DNA of 64,000 nucleotides from Oscillospiraceae bacterium (GTDB lineage: Bacteria; Bacillota; Clostridia; Oscillospirales; Acutalibacteraceae), in assembly GCA_015066345.1 (NCBI GenBank), contig SVOQ01000002.1, positions 58,659-122,658 of the forward strand. The letters are read 5' to 3'. The position numbers and the translations under genes are program-made. The notes below the pieces were generated by a model. The model was given only the letters and a program-made list of their open reading frames with translations, did not search any database and had not been told where the DNA came from. Below are positions 3,338 to 44,221 of the stretch, piece after piece (position 1 is the first letter of the stretch; each line of letters begins with the position of its first letter).

Positions 3338-4579
3338 AATAATATATTCTTCGTACTTCTCGAGTACAAATATCTCTGCGGTAATATCCAACAACAACCC
3401 ATCTGCAGTATATTCTTCCGAATGCACGACGCCCGTTTTACGAAGTTCTGCACCTGCACCACCCATTGAAAAGGGTAAAAGTATTTTAACTCTTTTCCTT
3501 GTCGGAGGAAGTGCAGTGGCAATTTTTTCAAGAAGCAGAGGAAGTCCCTCCCCTGTTTTTGCTGAAACCCGTACCACATTTCCTACTAAAGGAATTGAAA
3601 TATCATTGGTTAAGTCGCATTTATTGAGGACTGTAATTGTAGGTTTATCACCGCATCCCAATTCCTCAAGAAGTTCATTTGTGACCCTGTAATGCTCGGA
3701 GCATTCATCACTTGATGCGTCGCAGATATTGAGTATTACATTAGCGTCCACGGCTTCGTCAAGGGTTGATTTGAATGCCTCAACCAATTTATGAGGAAGT
3801 CTTCTTATAAACCCAACGGTATCTATTAGAAGAACTGAATTACCATCGGGCAAAGTCAATGCTCTCGCAGTAGGGTCAAGGGTTGCAAAAAGTTTATTTT
3901 CCGCAAGAACTCCTGCATCTGTAAGAGTATTCATTAATGTGGATTTCCCCGCGTTTGTGTATCCCACAAGGGCAACGGTAACTACTCCGTCTTTTTTACG
4001 TCTTTCTCTGTGACGTGTGCGTCTTTCGTCAAGGGCTTTCAAATCCTCGGTCAGTGCCGAAATTCTACGTCTTATATGTCGACGGTCAGTTTCCAACTTA
4101 GTTTCGCCGGGACCCCTTGTACCGATACCACCGCCGAGCCTTGACATCGAAGCACCTTTACCACCAAGACGGGGCAATGCGTACTTTAACTGAGCAAGTT
4201 CAACCTGTAATTTACCCTCACCCGAAAGAGCACGACCTGCAAAAATATCAAGTATAAGTGTTGTACGGTCAATAACTCTTACATCAGTTATAGTTTCAAT
4301 ATTCTTTTGTTGAGCAGGTGACAACTCGCCGTCAACAATAACAAGGTCGGGCTTTTCATTCTCACAAAACTCCGAAAGTTCTTCAAGTTTACCCCTACCG
4401 AGATATGTGCCGGGCTCGGGTGCTTCACGTTTCTGGGTCATTTCACATATAACCTCTGCACCCGCGGTTTTAGCAAGTTCCGTAAGTTCCGCCAAAGATG
4501 AGTCCACATCAAACTCACCCGTATCAACGGAAATTAACACGGCACGTTCCGCCTCAACTTTATTTTCATAAAATTCCAT
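3335..4579 (-). CDS. hflX: GTPase HflX
   Basis: 414 aa. GYTNAGKST P-loop, DTVGF, NKCD, and an N-terminal HflX-type domain. Confidence 0.9.
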   Translation of the reverse strand: MEFYENKVEAERAVLISVDTGEFDVDSSLAELTELAKTAGAEVICEMTQKREAPEPGTYLGRGKLEELSEFCENEKPDLVIVDGELSPAQQKNIETITDVRVIDRTTLILDIFAGRALSGEGKLQVELAQLKYALPRLGGKGASMSRLGGGIGTRGPGETKLETDRRHIRRRISALTEDLKALDERRTRHRERRKKDGVVTVALVGYTNAGKSTLMNTLTDAGVLAENKLFATLDPTARALTLPDGNSVLLIDTVGFIRRLPHKLVEAFKSTLDEAVDANVILNICDASSDECSEHYRVTNELLEELGCGDKPTITVLNKCDLTNDISIPLVGNVVRVSAKTGEGLPLLLEKIATALPPTRKRVKILLPFSMGGAGAELRKTGVVHSEEYTADGLLLDITAEIFVLEKYEEYII

Positions 4580-4604
4580 AAATTCACCAAATTATAAATT
4601 TATT

Positions 4605-17978: not shown

Positions 17979-18125
17979 ATGAAAAAACATAAAAAGAGCA
18001 AAGTCCAGGAAGTAATCGACGCCGACAACAACATTGATAAAAATATTTTAAGTGATGTAAACGGCTCTTACACGGGGAAACCCCTTAACGGCGACGAGCC
18101 TTTGCAGGACGCTGACGATTTGTAA
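17979..18125 (+). CDS. small hypothetical protein (48 aa), below the ORF-track cutoff
   Basis: GAGGTG Shine-Dalgarno 7 nt upstream of the ATG. Translates to MKKHKKSKVQEVIDADNNIDKNILSDVNGSYTGKPLNGDEPLQDADDL. Its 3' end overlaps the convergent gene by 41 nt. Confidence 0.45.
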   Translation: MKKHKKSKVQEVIDADNNIDKNILSDVNGSYTGKPLNGDEPLQDADDL

Positions 18126-20601
18126 TTTTTACTTTACCGACTCTTTTTTTACGTTCAAAGTTATGAACAATGTGAGTACCCGTAAGGGCAAAGAGTGATA
18201 TTGCCGTAAAGAACAACTGCATAAACGCCATTTGCAAACAGTTAAGATTCGAAAGCCCTGAAACAAGGGCAAGTACCGCAACAACTGCAATCCCAATACC
18301 CATAGCACAAAGTTGGAAAATATGAATTACCTGCTTTATGGCGTTGAGTGATAAAGCGCTTTTTATACAGTGTAAAAAGCTTGTGGTCTTGCCGTCGTGC
18401 AAAAGAAGTGCATCGGCGGCAGATGTGGTACAGGATTCATAAGATTTATACAAATCCCCCGAAACTGCAGATAAAATCTTAACTCCGCTTAAGGGTAAAT
18501 TAAGTTTATTTGCTACCATAGTATCGGTTATATTAGCATCATCCGAACGCACAAGCAATGAAATACTGTTACTTTCAATATTTTTAAGAAGTCGTGCGTT
18601 TGCGGTGTTAATATCATAAGATATTATAAACACTGCCGCGGCTTTACCGTCCAAAGCGAGATACAGCGGATATCTGCCCTCACAAAGATGCTTTTCAATA
18701 AGAGCCTTGTCGGGAATTTCCACATTGTGGTTTTTAAGTAAATCTGCGTTACCTACAAGCACACGTCTGTTGAAAATCCAGGCAGAAAGCCCTAATTTTT
18801 CTTCATAAGCGAGAGTATCAACAGGGGGAAGAAGAGAAACCTCACCCACAATAACTCTTTTAAATAAATTACCTAAAGGTCCGCCCGAAGCGATGACCAA
18901 TGCGGCGGTGTTTATAATGGCTTCATCAATTTCCATATCATAGAAAAGATGTATGCCGTATACATTTCCGCCCTCTTCATCAAAAATATCCGCCGAGTCA
19001 ACCGTAATAGCGTTTGCATTTTCGCAAGTTCTCAGTGCATCCCAACCTGCAATCATACCGCCTTTATTCCGTGTTTTTTTAGAGACTTTTTTAATAGCAA
19101 TAGCGTCCGCTATAAATGAAAAATAAGGTAAACTTATACATAAAGCGGCGGTAAAAGCGGAAATACCGCTCACAAGATGCTTCGTAACTATCAATGAAAT
19201 CAGACCGATTAAAACTGATACACCCAAACTTATGGGAATAAGTTTTCTGGCTATATCGTCCGAGGGGTAAAATTTACTTGAAAGCTCCACAAAACGCCTT
19301 GGGAATAATGTTTTCTGTGAAGAGATAATTACAGGTTCTTCAAGAAGTAAACCTCTGCCGATTTCAAAAGCGGTCTCCCCTTGTTCAATGGGTCCTACTG
19401 CGTAAATTTCCTCTTTTTCAGTCATATAACTGAAGTTTTCACTTATTCTCTGAGTTTCAATTGCACGTGCAACAAGGTTAAGTCCCATACTCAATACCGC
19501 AACCGAACCGAATAAGCTAATATCCTTTTCAAAGGGGTCGGCTGTAAACAAGAATGCGAATTCCTGCACAAGGGCGGCTACAATACCAAGAAACACACCC
19601 GTGTCACGGTTAAGTTTAAAGTCCTTAAAACCTTTGACACCATCAATAATACAGTTAAAATTAACCACACATGGAGCAATAGTAAGTAGAATTGAGGCTA
19701 TAACAAAAACCGTTCCGCCTGTATCAAAATTTTTAGCAATAAGTGAAATTACTAAAAGTAATAAAAATGATATAAATGACACTACCGCACCCATTACGGC
19801 GGTATTTTTTTGTTTTCTTAAAAAATACGAAACCTTAAATTTATCGTCGGGCATACGGTATTCATCCGTGCCGTATTTTTTTACGGGTTCGTTATTTTCG
19901 GGTTCATCGGGTTCGCTGGTAACTGTAAACTTACTTGCCTTTTCCTTGCGTTTTTTAATAAGTTGTTCTTCAACTTCTCTTTCGTCGACGATTTCAACAT
20001 CAGTATCGTGAAAACCCTCAAAGGTAAGCTGAGCACCGTCATCTTCCTCGGGAAGTTCAATATCGTGAGCATCTCCGTCAGTAACCGCAAGGGAACGAAG
20101 CCCAATGGTTTTAGTGTGTTGCATATCATCAAATACAACGGTTTTTTCAGTTGCTTCCATATCCCCTGCCTTGTGGTCAGGAACGAGATTGGGGACGGGT
20201 GAAAAATCCGAAGTATGAGTGAAATTACTTTGTTTTTTCACGAAACCGCCACGCTCGTATTTTTGCTCCTCAGGGGGCACAATACGGTGTTCTGCGGTTT
20301 TTTCAAGATTCTGAATAGGTTTATTAAAAAAGCGGTTACGGTACTTTTCACTGACAAAGGTTCCGTAAACCTGAGGCTCTGCCACACTGTCAGAACGCTC
20401 AACCGTATCGGTTATAATACGGTGCTCTATATTTTCATTATGGCTCGGTCTCGGATTAAATGAAACTGCTTTTGGCGTATGCTCAATTTCCTCAACAAAT
20501 TCAAGGGCATCACTACCGTCTTGAAGCATACCGCTATCTTGCAGTAATTCATCAATTTCTTCCAAAGACCATTTTCTTGTCTTTTTTCTTTCGTCAGCCA
20601 T
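18085..20601 (-). CDS. membrane protein with a degenerate P-type (heavy-metal type) ATPase-like core and a long acidic N-terminal extension
   Basis: 838 aa. TM bundle followed by ...NANAITVDSADIFDEEG, LLVRSDDAN and SAADALLLHDG, which resemble the DKTGT, TGDN and hinge blocks. Confidence 0.5.
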   Translation of the reverse strand: MADERKKTRKWSLEEIDELLQDSGMLQDGSDALEFVEEIEHTPKAVSFNPRPSHNENIEHRIITDTVERSDSVAEPQVYGTFVSEKYRNRFFNKPIQNLEKTAEHRIVPPEEQKYERGGFVKKQSNFTHTSDFSPVPNLVPDHKAGDMEATEKTVVFDDMQHTKTIGLRSLAVTDGDAHDIELPEEDDGAQLTFEGFHDTDVEIVDEREVEEQLIKKRKEKASKFTVTSEPDEPENNEPVKKYGTDEYRMPDDKFKVSYFLRKQKNTAVMGAVVSFISFLLLLVISLIAKNFDTGGTVFVIASILLTIAPCVVNFNCIIDGVKGFKDFKLNRDTGVFLGIVAALVQEFAFLFTADPFEKDISLFGSVAVLSMGLNLVARAIETQRISENFSYMTEKEEIYAVGPIEQGETAFEIGRGLLLEEPVIISSQKTLFPRRFVELSSKFYPSDDIARKLIPISLGVSVLIGLISLIVTKHLVSGISAFTAALCISLPYFSFIADAIAIKKVSKKTRNKGGMIAGWDALRTCENANAITVDSADIFDEEGGNVYGIHLFYDMEIDEAIINTAALVIASGGPLGNLFKRVIVGEVSLLPPVDTLAYEEKLGLSAWIFNRRVLVGNADLLKNHNVEIPDKALIEKHLCEGRYPLYLALDGKAAAVFIISYDINTANARLLKNIESNSISLLVRSDDANITDTMVANKLNLPLSGVKILSAVSGDLYKSYESCTTSAADALLLHDGKTTSFLHCIKSALSLNAIKQVIHIFQLCAMGIGIAVVAVLALVSGLSNLNCLQMAFMQLFFTAISLFALTGTHIVHNFERKKRVGKVKITNRQRPAKARRR

Positions 20602-20616
20602 TATTATTCCTCACAA

Positions 20617-21444
20617 TTAGTTTTGAATATCACGCTGTTTAGATATCTCGTACATCAATATACCTGCGGCAACTGATGCATTAAGAGAGTTAATCTGCCC
20701 TTTCATAGGCATTGAAAGAATAACGTCGCATTTTTCTTTTACGAGCCTTCCCACACCTTTACCTTCGGAACCGATAACAAGTGCCACCGCACCTTTAAGG
20801 TCTGCGTTGTAGAAGGTTTCGCCATCCATATCCGCACAGTAAATCCAGACACCGCGTTCTTTAAGTTCATCAAGTGTCTGAGGGATATTAGTAACCCTTG
20901 CTACGTGCATAAATTCAACTGCACCTGCGGATGTTTTAGCAACGGCAAAGCTCAGGGGTGCACTACGTCTTTTGGGAACAATAACACCGTGAGCCCCTGC
21001 CGCCTCGGCAGTTCTTATTATAGCGCCCAGATTATGAGGGTCCTCAATCTCGTCGCAGACTATAATGAAGGGTGGCTCTCCTTTTTCCTCTGCCTTAGCA
21101 AAGATATCATCAACTGTTGAATATGCTTTAACCGCGCCCATTGCTATAACGCCCTGATGATTTGCGTGACCGCAAAGGAAGTCGAGTTTTTTACGGTCAA
21201 CCTCTTTTATTGGAATACCCGCATTTTTTGCATCCGCAAGAATCTTAGGCACTGAGCCTGAGCGTTCACCCCTTGCAACCATAACACTATCAAGGGGTCG
21301 CCCTGCTTTTATAGCCTCCTGAACGGAGTTTCTGCCGAAAATTATATCTTTTTCGTTTTGATTTTCTCTTTCAGAAAAATCATCTTTGTAACCGTCAAAC
21401 TTTTTCTTGCGGTCATTAAAATTATCGTTTTTATTTTTATACAT
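20617..21444 (-). CDS. rlmB: 23S rRNA (guanosine-2'-O)-methyltransferase, TrmH/SpoU family
   Basis: SpoU substrate-binding and methylase domains (DPHNLGAIIRTA, IGSEGKG). Start moved to MYKNKN because the listed N-terminal extension is translated repeat DNA. Confidence 0.85.
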   Translation of the reverse strand: MYKNKNDNFNDRKKKFDGYKDDFSERENQNEKDIIFGRNSVQEAIKAGRPLDSVMVARGERSGSVPKILADAKNAGIPIKEVDRKKLDFLCGHANHQGVIAMGAVKAYSTVDDIFAKAEEKGEPPFIIVCDEIEDPHNLGAIIRTAEAAGAHGVIVPKRRSAPLSFAVAKTSAGAVEFMHVARVTNIPQTLDELKERGVWIYCADMDGETFYNADLKGAVALVIGSEGKGVGRLVKEKCDVILSMPMKGQINSLNASVAAGILMYEISKQRDIQN

Positions 21445-21448
21445 AAAT

Positions 21449-21549
21449 AATTCCTTTTCTCGTCCCGAAGGGACATATCGTGCTAAAAGCATATCGCGTG
21501 CTTTAGCACATATCGCAAATTCCGTCAAGAATTTATATCGCTGTGGCTT
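21449..21549. repeat. 101-bp direct repeat, copy 1, flanking the four-helix-bundle gene
   Basis: 98/101 identical by eye to 21983..22083. Supplies the last 5 codons and stop of the four-helix-bundle gene and the Shine-Dalgarno region of rlmB. Confidence 0.9.
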
Positions 21550-21883
21550 TTTTCACTGTTGTTATGGAAGCAATGAGTTTCCTTCTAATTTTCCCGCATT
21601 TGTTATTAATATCAACAAACGTTTTTTCATTAATAGCGTTTACACCAAACAAAATTTCAAGCCAATATTCAGTTTCATAACATTCCTTCAGAGCAATTTC
21701 CATTTTGTGAATAAAATCTGCACGACTTTGAGCATATTTAGCTTCATGGACATTCGCTCCTATTGAAGAACAAGAACGCATAATCTGATTGGTGTATACT
21801 TTTCTGTTGTTTATAATATCGCAAATATTTGTAATTTCAATTGTTAATTCAACAGCCAATTCTTTTATTGTTTTTTCACTCAT
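21533..21883 (-). CDS. four-helix-bundle protein (23S rRNA IVS / Avd family)
   Basis: About 116 aa. SCSSIGANVHEAKYAQSRADFIHKMEIALKECYETEYWLEIL is the hallmark of this family. Start at MSEKT with an AGAGGT Shine-Dalgarno. Confidence 0.85.
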   Translation of the reverse strand: MSEKTIKELAVELTIEITNICDIINNRKVYTNQIMRSCSSIGANVHEAKYAQSRADFIHKMEIALKECYETEYWLEILFGVNAINEKTFVDINNKCGKIRRKLIASITTVKKATAI

Positions 21884-21982
21884 CCTACTACCTCTTTTGG
21901 CGATATACACACTTCGTGTGCACGATATATTTGCAACACAAATGCGATATAACCTCGCCTTGCTCGGTCGCGATATGATATA

Positions 21983-22083
21983 AATTCCTTTTCTCGTCCC
22001 GAAGGGACATATCGTGCTGAAAGCATATAGCGTGCTTTAGCACATATCGCAAATTCCGTCAGGAATTTATATCGCTGTGGCTT
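21983..22083. repeat. 101-bp direct repeat, copy 2
   Basis: See copy 1. Three substitutions. Lies 6 nt from the serS stop codon. Confidence 0.9.
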
Positions 22084-22089
22084 CGCCAC

Positions 22090-23376
22090 TTATGCCTTCG
22101 GCACAAGTTTTTCCTTACCGCCCATATAGGGTCTTAAGGCTACGGGAATGTTTACGCTACCGTCCTCGTTAAGGTTGTTTTCAAGGAATGCAATAAGCAT
22201 TCTGGGAGGAGCAACAACGGTGTTGTTAAGGGTATGGGGGAAGTACTTTTTATCCTTACCACCCGCACGGATTTTAAGGCGTCTTGCCTGAGCATCGGAA
22301 AGGTTTGAGCAAGAACCGACTTCAAAATACTTCTGCTGTCTGGGACTCCATGCCTCAACGTCAACAGATTTAACCTTAAGGTCTGCAAGGTCACCTGAGC
22401 AACACTCGAGAGTTCTTACGGGGATATCAAGTGAACGGAATAAATCAACTGTGTTTTTCCAGAGTTGGTCAAACCAATAGGGGCTTTCCTCGGGCTTACA
22501 AACAACAATCATTTCCTGCTTTTCAAACTGATGAATACGGTAAACACCGCGTTCCTCAATACCGTGAGCACCCTTTTCTTTACGGAAACAGGGAGAATAA
22601 CTTGTAAGTGTCTGGGGAAGTTTTTCCTCGGGAACAATTGTATCAATGAATTTACCAATCATTGAGTGTTCGCTTGTACCGATAAGGTAAAGGTCCTCAC
22701 CCTCGATTTTGTACATCATAGCGTCCATTTCCGCAAAACTCATAACGCCTGTAACAACGTTTGAACGAATCATAAAGGGAGGAATATAATATGTGAAACC
22801 ACGGTCAATCATAAAATCCCTTGCATAGGAAATAACCGCAGAATGAAGTCTTGCAATATCACCGCAAAGGTAGTAGAAACCGTTACCCGCTACTCTACCC
22901 GCACTGTCGAGATCGATACCGTCGAAACTTTCCATAATCTCACGGTGATAAGGAATTTCAAACTCGGGAACAACGGGGTCACCGAAACGCTCGATTTCAA
23001 CGTTTTCGGAGTCATCCTTACCAATAGGAACACTGGGGTCGATGATATTGGGAATAACCATCATAATATCGTTAACTTTCTTAGAAAGTTCAACCTCAAG
23101 ACCCTCAAGCTCTGCAAGACGTTTAGCATCTTCAGCAACCTGTTTTTTCATTGCCTCGGCTTCGTCTCTTTTGCCCTGAGCCATAAGAGCACCAATCATC
23201 TTACTGTTTTTATTTCTTGAAGCACGAAGGTTATCTGCTTCACCCTTAACCTTACGGCTTTCGGCATCAAGTTCAATTACCTCATCCACAAGGGCAAGTT
23301 TCTTATCCTGAAATTTATTTTTAATATTCTGTTTTACTATTTCGGGGTTCTCTCTTAAAAATTTAATATCTATCAT
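22090..23376 (-). CDS. serS: serine--tRNA ligase
   Basis: 428 aa. N-terminal coiled-coil arm and class II motifs (FRKEKGAHG, GSCSNLSDAQARR). Confidence 0.95.
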   Translation of the reverse strand: MIDIKFLRENPEIVKQNIKNKFQDKKLALVDEVIELDAESRKVKGEADNLRASRNKNSKMIGALMAQGKRDEAEAMKKQVAEDAKRLAELEGLEVELSKKVNDIMMVIPNIIDPSVPIGKDDSENVEIERFGDPVVPEFEIPYHREIMESFDGIDLDSAGRVAGNGFYYLCGDIARLHSAVISYARDFMIDRGFTYYIPPFMIRSNVVTGVMSFAEMDAMMYKIEGEDLYLIGTSEHSMIGKFIDTIVPEEKLPQTLTSYSPCFRKEKGAHGIEERGVYRIHQFEKQEMIVVCKPEESPYWFDQLWKNTVDLFRSLDIPVRTLECCSGDLADLKVKSVDVEAWSPRQQKYFEVGSCSNLSDAQARRLKIRAGGKDKKYFPHTLNNTVVAPPRMLIAFLENNLNEDGSVNIPVALRPYMGGKEKLVPKA

Positions 23377-24262: not shown

Positions 24263-25024
24263 TTAATTCATTTTCAAAAATTCTTCCGCCAAAGCGGTGT
24301 AGCTTTCGCTACCTCTCGAAGCACGGTCATAATAAATAACCGGTTCGCCGAATGAGGGAGCCTCAGAAAGTCTTACGTTACGGGGAATAACCGTTGCATA
24401 AACTTTTTTCGGAAAAAAGTTTTTAACCTCCGCAACCACCTGTTGAGTAAGATTAAGTCTTCCGTCGTACATAGTAAGAAGAACACCCTCAAGCTCTATG
24501 TAAGGATTATAAAGTCTTTTTATGGTACGCACCGTAGCCATAAGCTGTGAGAGACCCTCAAGTGCGTAGTATTCGCATTGAATGGGAACTATGAAACTAT
24601 CCGACGCAGTAAGTGCGTTGAGAGTTATAAGTCCCAATGAAGGGGGACAATCGAAGAAAATAAAATCATAATTTTCCTGAATTGTAGCGAGGGCATTTTT
24701 TAAAAGTGCCTCACGCTTGTCCATTACCGCAAGTTCTAATTCCGCACCTGCCAGGTTAATATTTGAGGGTATAATATCAACGCCCTGAAATTTTGTTTTT
24801 ATAATTGCCTGAGCGGCACTGCAGGAGCCTATAAGCAATTCGTAGGAAGTGGCGGTAAGATTTTTACGTGAAATACCGTAACCGCTGGTGGTGTTACCCT
24901 GGGGATCAATATCAACAAGAAGTATTCTTTTTCCCAAGGCACCTAAAGCGGCGGCAAGATTCACGGCACTTGTGGTTTTACCCACGCCACCCTTCTGATT
25001 AACAATCGAAATAATTTTAGCCAT
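24263..25024 (-). CDS. parA: ParA/Soj ATPase
   Basis: Deviant Walker A NQKGGVGKTT. 253 aa. Immediately upstream of parB. Confidence 0.9.
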   Translation of the reverse strand: MAKIISIVNQKGGVGKTTSAVNLAAALGALGKRILLVDIDPQGNTTSGYGISRKNLTATSYELLIGSCSAAQAIIKTKFQGVDIIPSNINLAGAELELAVMDKREALLKNALATIQENYDFIFFDCPPSLGLITLNALTASDSFIVPIQCEYYALEGLSQLMATVRTIKRLYNPYIELEGVLLTMYDGRLNLTQQVVAEVKNFFPKKVYATVIPRNVRLSEAPSFGEPVIYYDRASRGSESYTALAEEFLKMN

Positions 25025-25161: not shown

Positions 25162-25283
25162 AGTTAAGAGATAAGAGAGAACAGATAAAAGAATCGGGGC
25201 TAACGCCGATTGTATTCACGTTTTGCGTAAGCAAAATATATCGCATCCAACGGATATATCGCGCGTTAGCATATCGCACCGAA

Positions 25284-25346
25284 GGGCATATAATGCCGAC
25301 CACAGGTCCCGACAATTATGCATTAAGCATTACGAATTCCGAATTA
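25284..25346. repeat. intergenic repeat module, copy 2 (partner at 3271..3337)
   Basis: ATAATGCCGACCACAGGTCCCGACAATTA-TGCATTAAGCATT-ACGAATTCCGAATTA. It ends exactly on the stop codon of the rsmF-like gene. Confidence 0.8.
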
Positions 25347-26705
25347 TTTTATTCTCAACCCTTTGGGATAATGATTCTTTGCTCTGCCGTTTACGACTTT
25401 TGCACCGCCTGAAGCACAACCATTGACCATTACTACCGCCCAACCATTGGGGAAATCGGTGTCAAATTCTTCACCGTGAAGATACTTTTTAAGATCTTCA
25501 CTATCGGGTGAAAGCTCGATTTTTCTTTTGAAGTTTTCACCCATTCCCATAAAGAATTGATGATGGGGTTGAATGTAGTTTTTACGCACCTCACCGATAG
25601 TAATACCCATTGAAAAAACCGTTGCTTTTTCAACCTTAAAATCGGGGTCAAAATATACGGGTGTACCCTTATGTAAAAGCACATTTTCTCTATCATAATA
25701 CACAAGTGTATCATCGAGGAAATCGTAAATAACCTTGTCAATTTTATCGTTCTTTTTACCTTTTACGGGGGCATAATTATTAGCGGAATTTGTATTATGA
25801 AGCACCGCCGCAAACTGACCTTCACCCTTGTTTTTATGGGGATAAAATCGTCTTGCAAAATGTATATTTTCACACTGGCAACCGTCAAATTTAATACCGT
25901 CACAGGTGTTTTCTTCTACTATTTCCGGCACTTTTACAATCTCGAAATCAGGATGATTTTTCAGAAAATCATCAATAATTTTCTCGTTTTCATCCAATGA
26001 AAAAGTACAGGTTGCGTACACAATATAACCGCCGTTTTTAAGGCATTTCGTGGCATTTTCGAGGATTTCCTTTTGCCTTAAAGCACAGTTTTTTACATTT
26101 TCCTCGCTCCATTCGTCAATGGCAATTTCCTCTTTTCTGAACATTCCCTCACCCGAGCAGGGTGCGTCAACCATAATTAAATCAAAGGTTTCAGGGAAAA
26201 CCGAGGCGAGTTTTTTAGTATCCATACAGGTGGTTACAACGTTTTTAAGACCGAGTCTTTCAACGTTACCCGTAAGAATTTTACACCTTGACGGAACAAT
26301 CTCGTTAGAAACAAGAACACCATTTTCGCCCAACGTATTCTTAAGTTGAGTGCTTTTACCACCGGGTGCGGCACACATATCTAAAACGCACCAATCAGGG
26401 TCAATTTCAACGCATTCCGCAGGCATCATAGCCCCCGGCTCCTGAACATAAATCATACCCGCGTGGTGGTAGGGATGATTACCGATTTTTTCATCCTCAA
26501 AGTAAAAACCGTTTTCAACATAGGGGATTTTTTCGGTAACAAATGGGTTGATTTTAAGGAAATCTTGCACCGAGATTTTATCAGTATTGACCCTGAATGC
26601 CCTTACGGGATTATCTTCCAAAGACTTTATATAATTATCAAAATCATCACCTAAAAGAAATTTCATTCTTTCGGCGAATTTTTCGGGTAATGCTTTCATT
26701 TTCAT
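25344..26705 (-). CDS. RsmB/RsmF (NOL1/NOP2/Sun) family RNA m5C methyltransferase
   Basis: DMCAAPGGKST and DAPCSGEGMFRK motifs, with a C-terminal PUA-like extension. Confidence 0.85.
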   Translation of the reverse strand: MKMKALPEKFAERMKFLLGDDFDNYIKSLEDNPVRAFRVNTDKISVQDFLKINPFVTEKIPYVENGFYFEDEKIGNHPYHHAGMIYVQEPGAMMPAECVEIDPDWCVLDMCAAPGGKSTQLKNTLGENGVLVSNEIVPSRCKILTGNVERLGLKNVVTTCMDTKKLASVFPETFDLIMVDAPCSGEGMFRKEEIAIDEWSEENVKNCALRQKEILENATKCLKNGGYIVYATCTFSLDENEKIIDDFLKNHPDFEIVKVPEIVEENTCDGIKFDGCQCENIHFARRFYPHKNKGEGQFAAVLHNTNSANNYAPVKGKKNDKIDKVIYDFLDDTLVYYDRENVLLHKGTPVYFDPDFKVEKATVFSMGITIGEVRKNYIQPHHQFFMGMGENFKRKIELSPDSEDLKKYLHGEEFDTDFPNGWAVVMVNGCASGGAKVVNGRAKNHYPKGLRIK

Positions 26706-27488: not shown

Positions 27489-28427
27489 TTATTTAAAATA
27501 TTTGTGACAATTAGCTTTTAAAAACTCTTTAATTTCGCCTGTATCTTTATCTTCGTAATATCTTACAAGAAGTTTTTTAAACTGCGGAACATTGGATTCC
27601 GGTATTACGAGAAGCCCCCCTGCATTTGCAATAAGATAATGATTTGCGAAGATAACAGCTGTCCGTTTGTTACCGTCATTGAAAATCTGGGTTTTCATAC
27701 AATAGAGGCATAATTCAATTGCAATATCAAGTGTGTCAGCTTGGCTGTCTGTTATAGCTTTAATATTTTCCATAACAACAGTTTCAATAGGCATTGGAGG
27801 TTTGTATGTTGTTCCCCCAATGGTTACAGGGACACCTCTTATCCTGCCACCATTTGTGAAAAAACCTTCATTAACAAGTCTTGCGATATGGCAAAGCACA
27901 GAATAATCACTCTTAACCTGAAGCACATCTTTATCAAGAATAAATTCCCAGGCGTGTTTAAGGTTAAGAATTTTTTGTACGTCGGTTGCAGTTACACCAT
28001 TAACAGTTCCATTCTCAATAATGTCCTCAGTTTGCGGGAATGATGTTGCAACACCCTCGAGAACCGCCTGTTCATATATGGAAAGTTTCATATTAGTTCT
28101 TGCAAAATCGAGATTAAGAATAACATCAGCAGAGAGTTCATTTTCAATAAAGCCCACCTCTGCAAGTTGTTTCTCAATCTTACGAATTTGCTTTTTCAGT
28201 TCTCTGCCTTCCTTGTTATTACGAAGCAAAAGCTGATAAAGGTCATCTGAATATACGTCCACGTAAGTTGATGTCACACGACTACCCACCCGTTTACGGA
28301 CATACAAATATTTTCCGCTCTGATTTTCTTTGATTTCGGGAGTCCCGTCATAAGGCAACAAATGTAAACGTGCAAACAAATCCGCACGTTGTTGCAATAA
28401 CTCCTGAATTTCAGGTAAATTGTTCAT
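27489..28427 (-). CDS. Fido-domain protein with a Doc-type motif variant (QIFNDGNKRTAV)
   Basis: The C-terminal block TQIFNDGNKRTAVIFANHYL resembles the P1 Doc HIFNDANKRTAL. Start moved to MNNLPE (AAGGTG Shine-Dalgarno 8 nt upstream). Confidence 0.65.
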   Translation of the reverse strand: MNNLPEIQELLQQRADLFARLHLLPYDGTPEIKENQSGKYLYVRKRVGSRVTSTYVDVYSDDLYQLLLRNNKEGRELKKQIRKIEKQLAEVGFIENELSADVILNLDFARTNMKLSIYEQAVLEGVATSFPQTEDIIENGTVNGVTATDVQKILNLKHAWEFILDKDVLQVKSDYSVLCHIARLVNEGFFTNGGRIRGVPVTIGGTTYKPPMPIETVVMENIKAITDSQADTLDIAIELCLYCMKTQIFNDGNKRTAVIFANHYLIANAGGLLVIPESNVPQFKKLLVRYYEDKDTGEIKEFLKANCHKYFK

Positions 28428-28439
28428 AATATCAACACC

Positions 28440-28542
28440 TTTAGGGAACATTTCTCTTAAAATTATAGTTATTCGTTCCCTAAAAGTCAATATATTTTAG
28501 GGAACATTTTGCGTTTTTACAACACTATTTGTTCCCTAAAAG
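28440..28542 (-). promoter_or_regulatory. consensus sigma-A promoter of the Fido gene embedded in two copies of an 11-bp inverted repeat (candidate operators)
   Basis: Minus strand reads TTGACT (28485-28490), 17 nt, TATAAT (28462-28467). TTTAGGGAAC..N..GTTCCCTAAAAG occurs at 28440-28486 (spans the -10 box and the Shine-Dalgarno) and at 28495-28542 (upstream of the -35 box). Confidence 0.7.
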
Positions 28543-28677: not shown

Positions 28678-28753
28678 GCTGATATAGCTCAGGTGGTAGA
28701 GTGCATCCTTGGTAAGGATGAGGTCACCGGTTCGAATCCGGTTATCAGCTCCA
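28678..28753 (+). tRNA. tRNA-Thr (anticodon GGT), CCA encoded
   Basis: Manual cloverleaf: acceptor GCTGATA/TATCAGC, D arm GCTC..GAG, anticodon stem CATCC/GGATG with loop TTGGTAA, T arm ACCGG-TTCGAAT-CCGGT, discriminator T, CCA. Confidence 0.9.
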
Positions 28754-44035: not shown

Positions 44036-44176
44036 AAAATCTCCCTACGGCGGTAACACTGCCATAGGGAGATACTTCCAGAGTTATTTTTCCTACGGCG
44101 GCATTATCCGCATCAGGTTATTAGGGTCAGAAAAGGAATGTTTTCTATCTCAGCCGACGTCCGTCAGCTCCCCTGT
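44036..44176 (-). promoter_or_regulatory. TPP (THI-box) riboswitch with a terminator expression platform
   Basis: Minus strand reads GGGGAGC...GGCTGAGA...GACCCTAATAACCTGATGCGGATAATGCCGCCGTAGGAA. It is followed by the TCTCCCTA...TAGGGAGA-TTTT hairpin just before the GGAGG Shine-Dalgarno. Confidence 0.9.
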
Positions 44177-44221
44177 TTTATTTTCGGCACGAAGCGTAGC
44201 TACTTTTCTTCGAGCAAGTTT

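Follow-up and report, generated by a model that had tools for sequence, protein, structure and literature searches.

The region between serS and rlmB in a 64,000-nt stretch of contig SVOQ01000002.1 (Oscillospiraceae bacterium, GenBank assembly GCA_015066345.1; the whole stretch is referred to as the window) holds a small gene of the family known from 23S rRNA intervening sequences (IVS), flanked by a direct repeat. All genes of this locus lie on the minus strand. The co-directional upstream gene, serS (22090–23376), encodes a seryl-tRNA synthetase with the Pfam domains Seryl_tRNA_N and tRNA-synt_2b and ends in a TAA stop codon at 22092–22090; the small gene (21533–21883; TIGR02436/PF05635) encodes 116 aa; and rlmB (20617–21444), for the 23S rRNA Gm2251 2′-O-methyltransferase of 275 aa, matches TIGR00186 with 253 bits and carries SpoU_methylase domains. 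The two copies of the repeat, X1 (21449–21549) and X2 (21983–22083), are each 101 nt long, identical at 98 of 101 positions and spaced by 534 nt, and the segment between them is designated Y. A repeat search returned this structure as a preliminary description of the same DNA had reported it, and a 28-mer taken from X was found twice, against a chance expectation of 0. The X–Y–X arrangement is not an assembly artefact, because the identical protein occurs on 22 contigs from independent samples.

The 116-aa protein scores 90.7 bits against TIGR02436 (cut-off 24) and 81.3 bits against PF05635 (cut-off 33.8; E 7e-23), in agreement with the family originally proposed for it, and aligns over its full length with the solved structure PDB 2RLD (E 6e-24), a homology from which a four-helix-bundle fold is predicted. 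Its conserved domain stops at ..TTVKK, and the remaining tail, ATAI, and the stop codon are supplied by X1; C-termini vary among the homologous proteins (alignment A1). Inside X1 lie the last four codons of the open reading frame (ORF), 2 bases of the preceding codon and the stop (AA GCC ACA GCG ATA TAA), so that, of the five terminal codons and stop earlier attributed to the repeat, the stop and four codons stand and the fifth contributes two bases only. The 3′ end of X1 is GAGAAAAGGAATT, 4 nt before the rlmB ATG, and X1 therefore supplies the Shine-Dalgarno sequence of rlmB, as the preliminary description had it. The start of rlmB is the ATG at 21444, and the same start is kept in two other species (loci L008 and L009). 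An "extended rlmB" ORF of 303 aa, reaching 21528, and an ORF at 21880–22089 both read through X, both contain EFAICAKAR..ARYVPSGREKE, and are spurious, as had also been recognized; read-through of X likewise gave a 312-aa RlmB gene call in alleles that lack Y. The reported absence of an rRNA gene or a reverse transcriptase nearby holds for the whole 64-kb window in the case of rRNA, and for the genes within ±6 kb and 20 further long ORFs in the case of the reverse transcriptase.

On the coding strand, the serS stop codon is followed by a hairpin termed h0, four GCGAUAU heptamers each with a hairpin, the centre GAGAAAAGGAAUUUAUAUC, four AUAUCGC heptamers with hairpins, a Shine-Dalgarno sequence and the ATG of the four-helix-bundle gene. 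The h0 hairpin (GTGGC-GAA-GCCAC, 22077–22089) lies directly 3′ of the serS stop, and the direct repeat begins within its loop; nearly all copies of the cassette described below have a hairpin here, of variable sequence (alignment A2 and homology breakpoints). X2, the upstream copy of what is here called the LeftArm, scores 116 bits at 21977–22078 with a covariance model of its own (R1) and reads GCGAUAU, AAAUUCC.UGAC.GGAAUUU, GCGAUAU, a hairpin, GCUAUAU, a second hairpin, ACGAUAU, GUCCCUUCGGGAC and GAGAAAAGGAAUU. The RightArm (21900–21982) consists of UAUAUC followed by four AUAUCG(C/U) heptamers alternating with three hairpins, one with a tandem G.A motif and another of the form CACAC-GAA-GUGUG; its heptamers are the reverse complement of those of X, with opposite-strand GCGATAT matches at 21900, 21944 and 21970. 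Directly 3′ of the last AUAUCGC lies the Shine-Dalgarno region of the four-helix-bundle gene (CAAAAGAGGUAGUAGG, 21884–21899). X1, the downstream LeftArm copy (R1, 92.9 bits), is the intercistronic leader of rlmB, in a junction that is identical in kind in sister species and in alleles without Y. The window contains 16 copies of GCGATAT, where 6.3 are expected, and nearly all of them lie within X1, X2, the stretch from X2 to the ORF (on the opposite strand) and a cluster at 25238–25277; by this clustering X is the LeftArm of a two-armed element, of which the first 83 nt of Y are the RightArm. A promoter and terminator scan of this region of the window found no sigma-70-like promoter ahead of the leader, where the −10 box is missing, and the four-helix-bundle gene is therefore probably transcribed by read-through from serS.

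This leader is a trait of the gene family. Its LeftArm has four hairpins with GCGAUAU after each, and its RightArm four hairpins with AUAUCGC before each. Homologues of the 116-aa protein form more than 6600 clusters in Clostridia gut metagenomes, and the same leader of ~200 nt precedes the gene at ~75 of 80 homologous loci fetched for comparison, one genome per species. Its L heptamers lie near −192, −167, −148 and −132 relative to the ATG, and its R heptamers near −98, −93, −67, −45 and −22. X-like arrays are widespread, so that the case of an X unique to this locus, which the preliminary description had weighed, does not hold, and the same kind of repeat was found at other four-helix-bundle genes, where the preliminary description had suggested looking for it. 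In alignment A2, which comprises 50 loci, there is little or no variation in the heptamers, the first hairpin or the centre, the motif AGAAAGG-N7-ATG is conserved, and the remaining hairpin stems vary freely yet keep their pairing (one pair is CG in 23, GC in 11, AU in 10 and UA in 3 sequences). Unguided folding of the alignment with RNAalifold gave a nested ladder, L1:R4, L2:R3, L3:R2 and L4:R1, each step of which carries local hairpins. When the LeftArm is folded alone, its consensus structure joins GAUAUAAAUUCC to GGAAUUUAUAUC of the centre in a 12-bp helix; this helix is 99% paired over 595 cells with 21 compensatory double-change cells, a level reached by 0 of 500 shuffles, and its one-sided changes are G.U in 9 of 9 cases and A.C in none, which points to the sense strand. 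All LeftArm matches lie on the gene strand. As read from the aligned sequences, the 5′ half of hairpin 1 covaries both with its local partner and with the centre, suggesting two alternative folds of the LeftArm. The centre itself resembles a Shine-Dalgarno sequence, and in X1 and in solo arrays it is the actual Shine-Dalgarno sequence of the next gene.

On the same general plan, the heptamer differs from one protein subfamily to another. The window subfamily has GCGATAT/ATATCGC; a 52% identical paralogue, located after EF-G (L021, L170), has GCUAAAU/AUUUAGC with four heptamers per side; a 37% identical paralogue (L048) has UGAAUU/AAUUCA; and TCGATAT/ATATCGA is found at L169, with UCGAUAU/AUAUCGA accompanying a 56% identical relative on a viral contig. 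Complementarity between the LeftArm start and the centre is common to the L021/L170, L048 and viral-contig subfamilies. A phage-borne cassette was considered and set aside, there being only one distant match in 2.9 million viral contigs. Close relatives of 2RLD in Bacteroides are encoded within arabinose (ara) and aromatic amino-acid operons, in the orders araD–gene–araA and aminotransferase–gene–DAHP synthase, and here the ORF has (AATTGAC)x4 upstream and (GTCAATT)x4 downstream, in tandem and with no hairpin spacers. Together these arrays make up an inverted repeat of 31 nt, folding into a stem around the ORF; this is the architecture of a 23S rRNA IVS placed between the cistrons of an mRNA. 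By analogy, the counterpart of this bracketing pair in the window would be the RightArm on the 5′ side and X1 on the 3′ side, with X2 as a second partner of the RightArm.

The extent of the unit can be read from copies that are 88–94% identical in nucleotide sequence and sit in unrelated contexts. Their homology runs from a −10 box (often TGnTATAAT), 2 nt before h0, to just past the stop codon, and a −10 box at this distance is seen in three subfamilies; from these sharp ends, the unit is a cassette of ~0.55–0.6 kb composed of promoter, h0, LeftArm, RightArm and ORF. Contrary to the term "autonomous" in the preliminary description, it includes no recombinase. The cassette is common in Oscillospirales gut bacteria, its leader begins within ~30 nt of the upstream stop codon, and the neighbouring gene is co-directional at 68 of 76 loci on the upstream and 69 of 75 on the downstream side. 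The upstream genes fall into 41 groups, one of which, a RumA/RlmD-type 23S rRNA methyltransferase, accounts for 30 of the 76 loci; others are SerS, CysS, ValS, MnmA and a DEAD-box helicase, together with transporters and metabolic enzymes. The cassette and the solo arrays frequently adjoin genes of the translation apparatus, also including RlmB, RsmF (in the window) and EF-G (L170), in counts that do not separate a functional linkage to translation from the shared ancestry of one old locus.

A downstream copy of the LeftArm, 42–101 nt long and 86–100% identical to the upstream one, is present at about 11 independent loci. A downstream X is missing from about three quarters of the cassette copies, and among Clostridial loci only about 20% have the downstream LeftArm. 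Four more loci have repeats of 19–27 nt, two of them consisting of h0 only (L012, L025) and two of parts of h1, L2 and h2. Among the flanking repeats the left edge lies at or in h0, and the right edge is variable, reaching up to the centre. Other arrangements include the order RightArm–LeftArm–gene–LeftArm (L059), the order LeftArm–RightArm–LeftArm–gene (L085), and solo LeftArms ahead of unrelated genes (L010, L022, L017). The arms can be split by other genes, as in L013 (2291–4462), where a complete MFS transporter gene lies between LeftArm and RightArm and a second LeftArm, ~86% identical, follows the four-helix-bundle gene. At L079 (6004–6300) and L017 (1–110) a complete LeftArm–RightArm leader is followed by only the last few four-helix-bundle codons, an internal deletion that possibly represents an intermediate towards ORF-less elements of the type of the Gut-1 RNA. 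The arrays are, in view of all these forms, recombinationally active modules. Short contigs of ~550 bp, which carry many of the homologues, were considered as circles or repeat-collapsed copies and discarded: L088 is a fragment, and the 14 contigs of P0152 are one locus sampled repeatedly.

In one group of genomes, a repeated motif, GGCATCTAAATYGTWCAC, is found around the cassettes, and a conserved motif of ~25 nt, (T/G)GGCATCTAAATYGTWCACYRATT, always on the gene strand, bounds the cassette and neighbouring small genes. Its sites are at L016 (1486, 3097, 3278, 3760 and 4854), L017:104, L019 (3754 and 4353), L020:4752, L021:1332, L024:4714, L031:1391, L032:4858 and L170 (~2650), and several unrelated ORFs terminate within it in ..GGC ATC TAA. 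These motifs could be a promoter/operator or a recombination site.

The age of the arrangement in the window can be judged from related strains and species. An identical SerS protein is encoded on contigs with X–Y–X (L001–L003, L006) and on contigs with serS–X–rlmB (L004, L005, L007), so that the empty junctions anticipated in the preliminary description do exist within the species, and each holds exactly one X. In a strain tree drawn from flank differences, (L003,(L006,(L004,(L005,L007)))), the empty alleles are nested among the filled ones and are therefore deletions, the simplest history being that the repeats recombined once and Y was lost together with one X. The same serS–X–Y–X–rlmB order is seen in two other species (L008, L009), with SerS proteins ~94–95% identical, and this arrangement predates the split of the three species. 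The preliminary description had weighed the case of relatives with a single X and the gene at a conserved position; the conserved position is found, with two copies of X and not one. Between species, nucleotide identity is 85–86% for serS, 81% for rlmB and 82% for the four-helix-bundle ORF, which has diverged as much as the flanking genes and has thus been inherited vertically with them. Identity is higher in X (94–97%) and in the RightArm (about 90%) than in the ORF, indicating a stronger constraint on the arrays than on the coding sequence. X1 and X2 share substitutions specific to each species (a UGGU loop in L009 and UGC in L008; CAGCGC versus CAGCAC), hence the copies evolve in concert, and they are kept alike by purifying selection and gene conversion. 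A SerS-based metagenome scan for a junction predating the cassette returned only relatives of 81–86% identity in which rlmB does not follow serS. In L009, the four-helix-bundle gene is separated from X1 by an extra ORF of 81 aa without family match (4342–4587), the start of which overlaps the stop preceding it (ATGA), and the repeat period is thereby lengthened to 781 nt.

The arrays also provide a link to the Gut-1 RNA (Rfam RF01706). At a relaxed threshold, X1 and X2 match the full Gut-1 model with 27.1 and 26.1 bits, both below the gathering threshold of 50, and X has the layout of Gut-1, tandem hairpins with a constant purine-rich heptamer (consensus alignment; A2, A3). Two bona fide Gut-1 matches, of 60 and 50.3 bits, occur in L039, and the 60-bit match is the LeftArm of an ORF-less bipartite GUGAUAU/AUAUCAC element. 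Gut-1 was described in 2010, from human gut sequences only, as a stand-alone hairpin-array small RNA candidate, and in its published alignment inverse AUAUCAC arrays lie downstream of some members (Weinberg et al., PMC2864571). X is a weak relative or sister of Gut-1, whose present definition covers one half of a larger element.

These data favour, as the probable explanation of the locus, a resident copy of a small recombinase-less cassette in which a TIGR02436/PF05635 gene is joined to a bipartite structured leader acting in the sense transcript, an RNA-level element resembling an IVS. The four L/R heptamer pairs would zip into a ladder of 7-bp helices separated by hairpin junctions, and in an alternative fold the LeftArm start GAUAUAAAUUCC would pair with the Shine-Dalgarno-like centre GGAAUUUAUAUC. 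X2 would serve as partner of the RightArm from upstream, and the RightArm and X1 would bracket the ORF with complementary arrays, so forming an intercistronic, IVS-like module that may allow an operon to accommodate a selfish or accessory gene and stay intact; the downstream gene would keep a Shine-Dalgarno sequence, provided by X1, while the cassette occupies the operon. Since the heptamers are identical within an array and change with the protein subfamily, they may be the recognition sites of the protein encoded by the cassette itself. Solo LeftArms and ORF-less Gut-1 elements would then be derivatives or scars of cassettes.

Several observations weigh against this explanation. As the downstream LeftArm is present in a minority of the Clostridial loci, bracketing of the ORF is not required there, and where the duplication exists it could have arisen by local duplication or by integration of an excised circle into a resident LeftArm. 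The long-range fold between the RightArm and X1 of the window, which carry complementary heptamers around the ORF, is no better than that of shuffled sequence (z = −1.8), and short 7-bp helices are poor substrates of RNase III. The 7-bp heptamer helices never covary within a subfamily, which makes their pairing inseparable from recognition by a protein of inverted double-stranded sites, and binding of the heptamers by the protein is pure inference. A role as RNA rather than as single-stranded DNA is argued for indirectly, and the local hairpin stems contain 1170 Watson–Crick pairs, 10 G.T and 5 A.C; such near-purity, uncommon in structured RNAs, would be compatible with DNA palindromes as well, and the scarcity of wobble pairs keeps a role at the DNA level a serious alternative. 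A strand test on these local hairpins by G.T versus A.C was undecided, with too few non-Watson–Crick pairs (10 versus 5), and the LeftArm-to-centre and ladder helices are more informative.

This DNA-level role, in excision and re-integration, does not exclude the RNA-level cassette and is compatible with an RNA function of the arrays. The LeftArm would be a portable stretch of homology or an attC-like folded site, and a 534-bp X+Y circle, excised by recombination between the X copies, would re-integrate at any LeftArm already resident, a single crossover taking place in the L1-h1-L2 segment (32 nt, nearly invariant) or in the h4-centre segment, and X–Y–X would be regenerated; the repeats would be integration products, and the solo arrays landing pads or scars. 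The edges of the repeats match those of the LeftArm, from L1/h0 to the centre GGAATT, pop-out alleles exist, gene conversion acts between the X copies, and the cassette, which has no recombinase, is found in more than 40 contexts. Strains differ in whether an array is present and in how many units it has, units being gained and lost, and solo arrays stand ahead of unrelated genes. The hairpins are almost perfectly Watson–Crick, and motifs of the GCGAAGC type are very stable as DNA. On the other hand, no circle or junction sequence was observed, the short contig examined being a fragment, the downstream repeat is missing from most copies of the cassette, and the hairpins of the LeftArm differ between loci, which leaves only short homology. 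The bias of one-sided helix changes towards sense-strand G.U, the location of the promoter precisely at h0 and the Shine-Dalgarno sequence that closes the array on its 3′ side likewise point to RNA, and as the principal explanation of the locus a DNA recombination module appears unlikely, with some real weight left to it.

The recent insertion implied in the preliminary description, in which an autonomous mobile unit Y gave rise to a very long target-site duplication, of 101 bp, is very improbable. It would account for repeats that are still 97% identical, for the single-X alleles lacking Y within the species, for the recurrence of long flanking repeats at about 11 independent loci, and for the 19–27-nt h0 repeats of L012 and L025, which look like target duplications. 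However, at all loci, even those with no downstream copy, the gene is preceded by a leader to which X is homologous, X being the 5′ half of the conserved leader of the cassette, and target-site duplication by staggered cuts was rejected on the ground that what is duplicated is a conserved module of the element itself. The arrangement is old and orthologous in three species, its ORF has diverged to the same degree as the host genes, the empty alleles nest within the filled ones, concerted evolution explains the high identity of the copies, and Y has no transposase, terminal inverted repeats or short flanking duplication. An ordinary operon feature, in which X is a generic REP-like cluster of terminator or stabilizer hairpins that was duplicated locally and the four-helix-bundle gene is an unrelated passenger, would suit arrays placed directly after the stops of co-directional genes, as REP/BIME are, and the solo arrays without a gene, but has next to no credibility given that the link between array and gene is near-obligate (~75 of 80 loci), that the position of the array relative to the ATG is fixed to a few nt, that the heptamer changes with the protein subfamily across two phyla, and that the arrays are strictly oriented.

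Other features of the window lie outside this locus. A third, degenerate, solo LeftArm-like array (25209–25299, minus strand; R1 23.5 bits, E 0.011) with three GCGAUAU units is located after rsmF (25344–26705) and before parA (24263–25024); L004 and L005 have four units, differing from the window allele by an 18-nt unit between two CCTTCGG repeats, and the array is absent from L006, which has a different terminator. A Fic/DUF6788 gene of 333 aa (27489–28490; also in L003) stands beside a tRNA gene (28678–28750), and a different ORF of 178 aa occupies this place in L004–L006, so that this is a second site of variation between strains. A predicted membrane protein of 838 aa without Pfam match is encoded immediately after rlmB in all three species (18085–20601 in the window, minus strand), and a TPP riboswitch with 62.7 bits, above the Rfam threshold, lies at 44072–44184 (minus strand).

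A wider generalization of the RNA-level cassette can be offered only tentatively: PF05635/TIGR02436 proteins may be sequence-specific partners of the complementary heptamer arrays beside or ahead of their genes, protein and arrays together making up a self-contained "intercistronic intervening sequence", and this IVS-like cassette may colonize operons in at least Bacillota and Bacteroidota, with rRNA genes as a special case and with Gut-1 and the solo arrays as ORF-less derivatives. To our knowledge, the four-helix-bundle/23S-IVS family has thousands of members and a solved structure and no known function, and the way in which IVS spread has been an open question since the 1990s; if the generalization is true, the pair of protein and array is the missing machinery of IVS maintenance, processing or spread. 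A gene that travels with a cognate nucleic-acid module, whose heptamer is set by the protein subfamily, predicts a binding specificity that can be tested. Gut-1, an orphan Rfam motif since 2010, gains a context as half of a bipartite element tied to four-helix-bundle genes. In practical terms, the arrays mislead gene calling, producing ORFs that are not genes and N-termini that are too long, among them those of the 303-aa and 312-aa versions of RlmB, and the repeats drive presence/absence polymorphism between strains and concerted evolution within housekeeping operons of gut commensals.

In comparison with known systems, the locus is neither a classical transposon, Y being a single non-enzymatic ORF of 116 aa, nor a diversity-generating retroelement, as no reverse transcriptase is encoded within ±6 kb or in the 20 other long ORFs and the sole long repeat is X, with no pair of template and variable repeats nearby. 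Recombination between flanking direct repeats that leaves one repeat behind recalls the formation of solo long terminal repeats (LTR), without reverse transcription or LTR structure. With integron cassettes it shares a promoter-poor, single-gene unit and an ORF that runs into an adjacent structured site supplying its stop codon; no integrase was found at the loci examined, and RYYYAAC/GTTRRRY boxes were lacking by eye, no formal attC search having been run. REP/BIME and REPtrons are similar in their hairpin repeats placed right after stop codons, in a gene between inversely oriented arrays and in many solo copies, and differ in that REP stems are conserved in sequence, whereas in the cassette the stems vary and only the linkers are conserved, and in that RAYT is an HUH Y1 transposase, whereas the cassette protein belongs to TIGR02436; the orientation of the cassette arrays is, in addition, strict.

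Avd, the accessory protein of diversity-generating retroelements, acts in a complex with structured RNA in the Bordetella phage system. The PDB 2RLD entry, with five chains, is consistent with an Avd-like pentamer, and Avd structures gave no sequence-level match to the 116-aa protein at E ≤ 0.01. Avd is a remote homologue of PF05635 proteins (PMC10053308). Gut-1 is alike in having several hairpins with a constant heptamer between them (GUGAAAU or GUGAUAU in Gut-1) and in its occurrence in gut Firmicutes, and unlike in having three hairpins, against four and the heptamer GCGAUAU in X, and in a description that includes neither a RightArm nor a link to a protein gene.

The closest parallel is the 23S rRNA IVS, which carries an S23p/PF05635 ORF in Leptospira and Coxiella (Warrier et al. 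2016, PMC4990558); that of Coxiella, with its S23p ORF, measures 428 nt and is excised by RNase III (PMC4990558). Both elements have the same protein family and a similar size (428 nt in Coxiella versus 433 nt for Y), with an ORF between complementary sequences, an arrangement that is explicit in the 31-nt stem of the Bacteroides relatives. The IVS sits in helix 25 or 45 of the 23S rRNA gene, is regarded as selfish, its mode of spread being unknown, and is tolerated because the host RNA functions after being cut, whereas the window cassette sits between cistrons of protein-coding operons. The flanks of the cassette also differ in being arrays of one heptamer, with interleaved hairpins in the window type, and most Clostridial copies carry both arms upstream of the ORF. 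In summary, the element is a variant of the kinds represented by the IVS element and the Gut-1 motif, and not an autonomous insertion with a 101-bp duplication.

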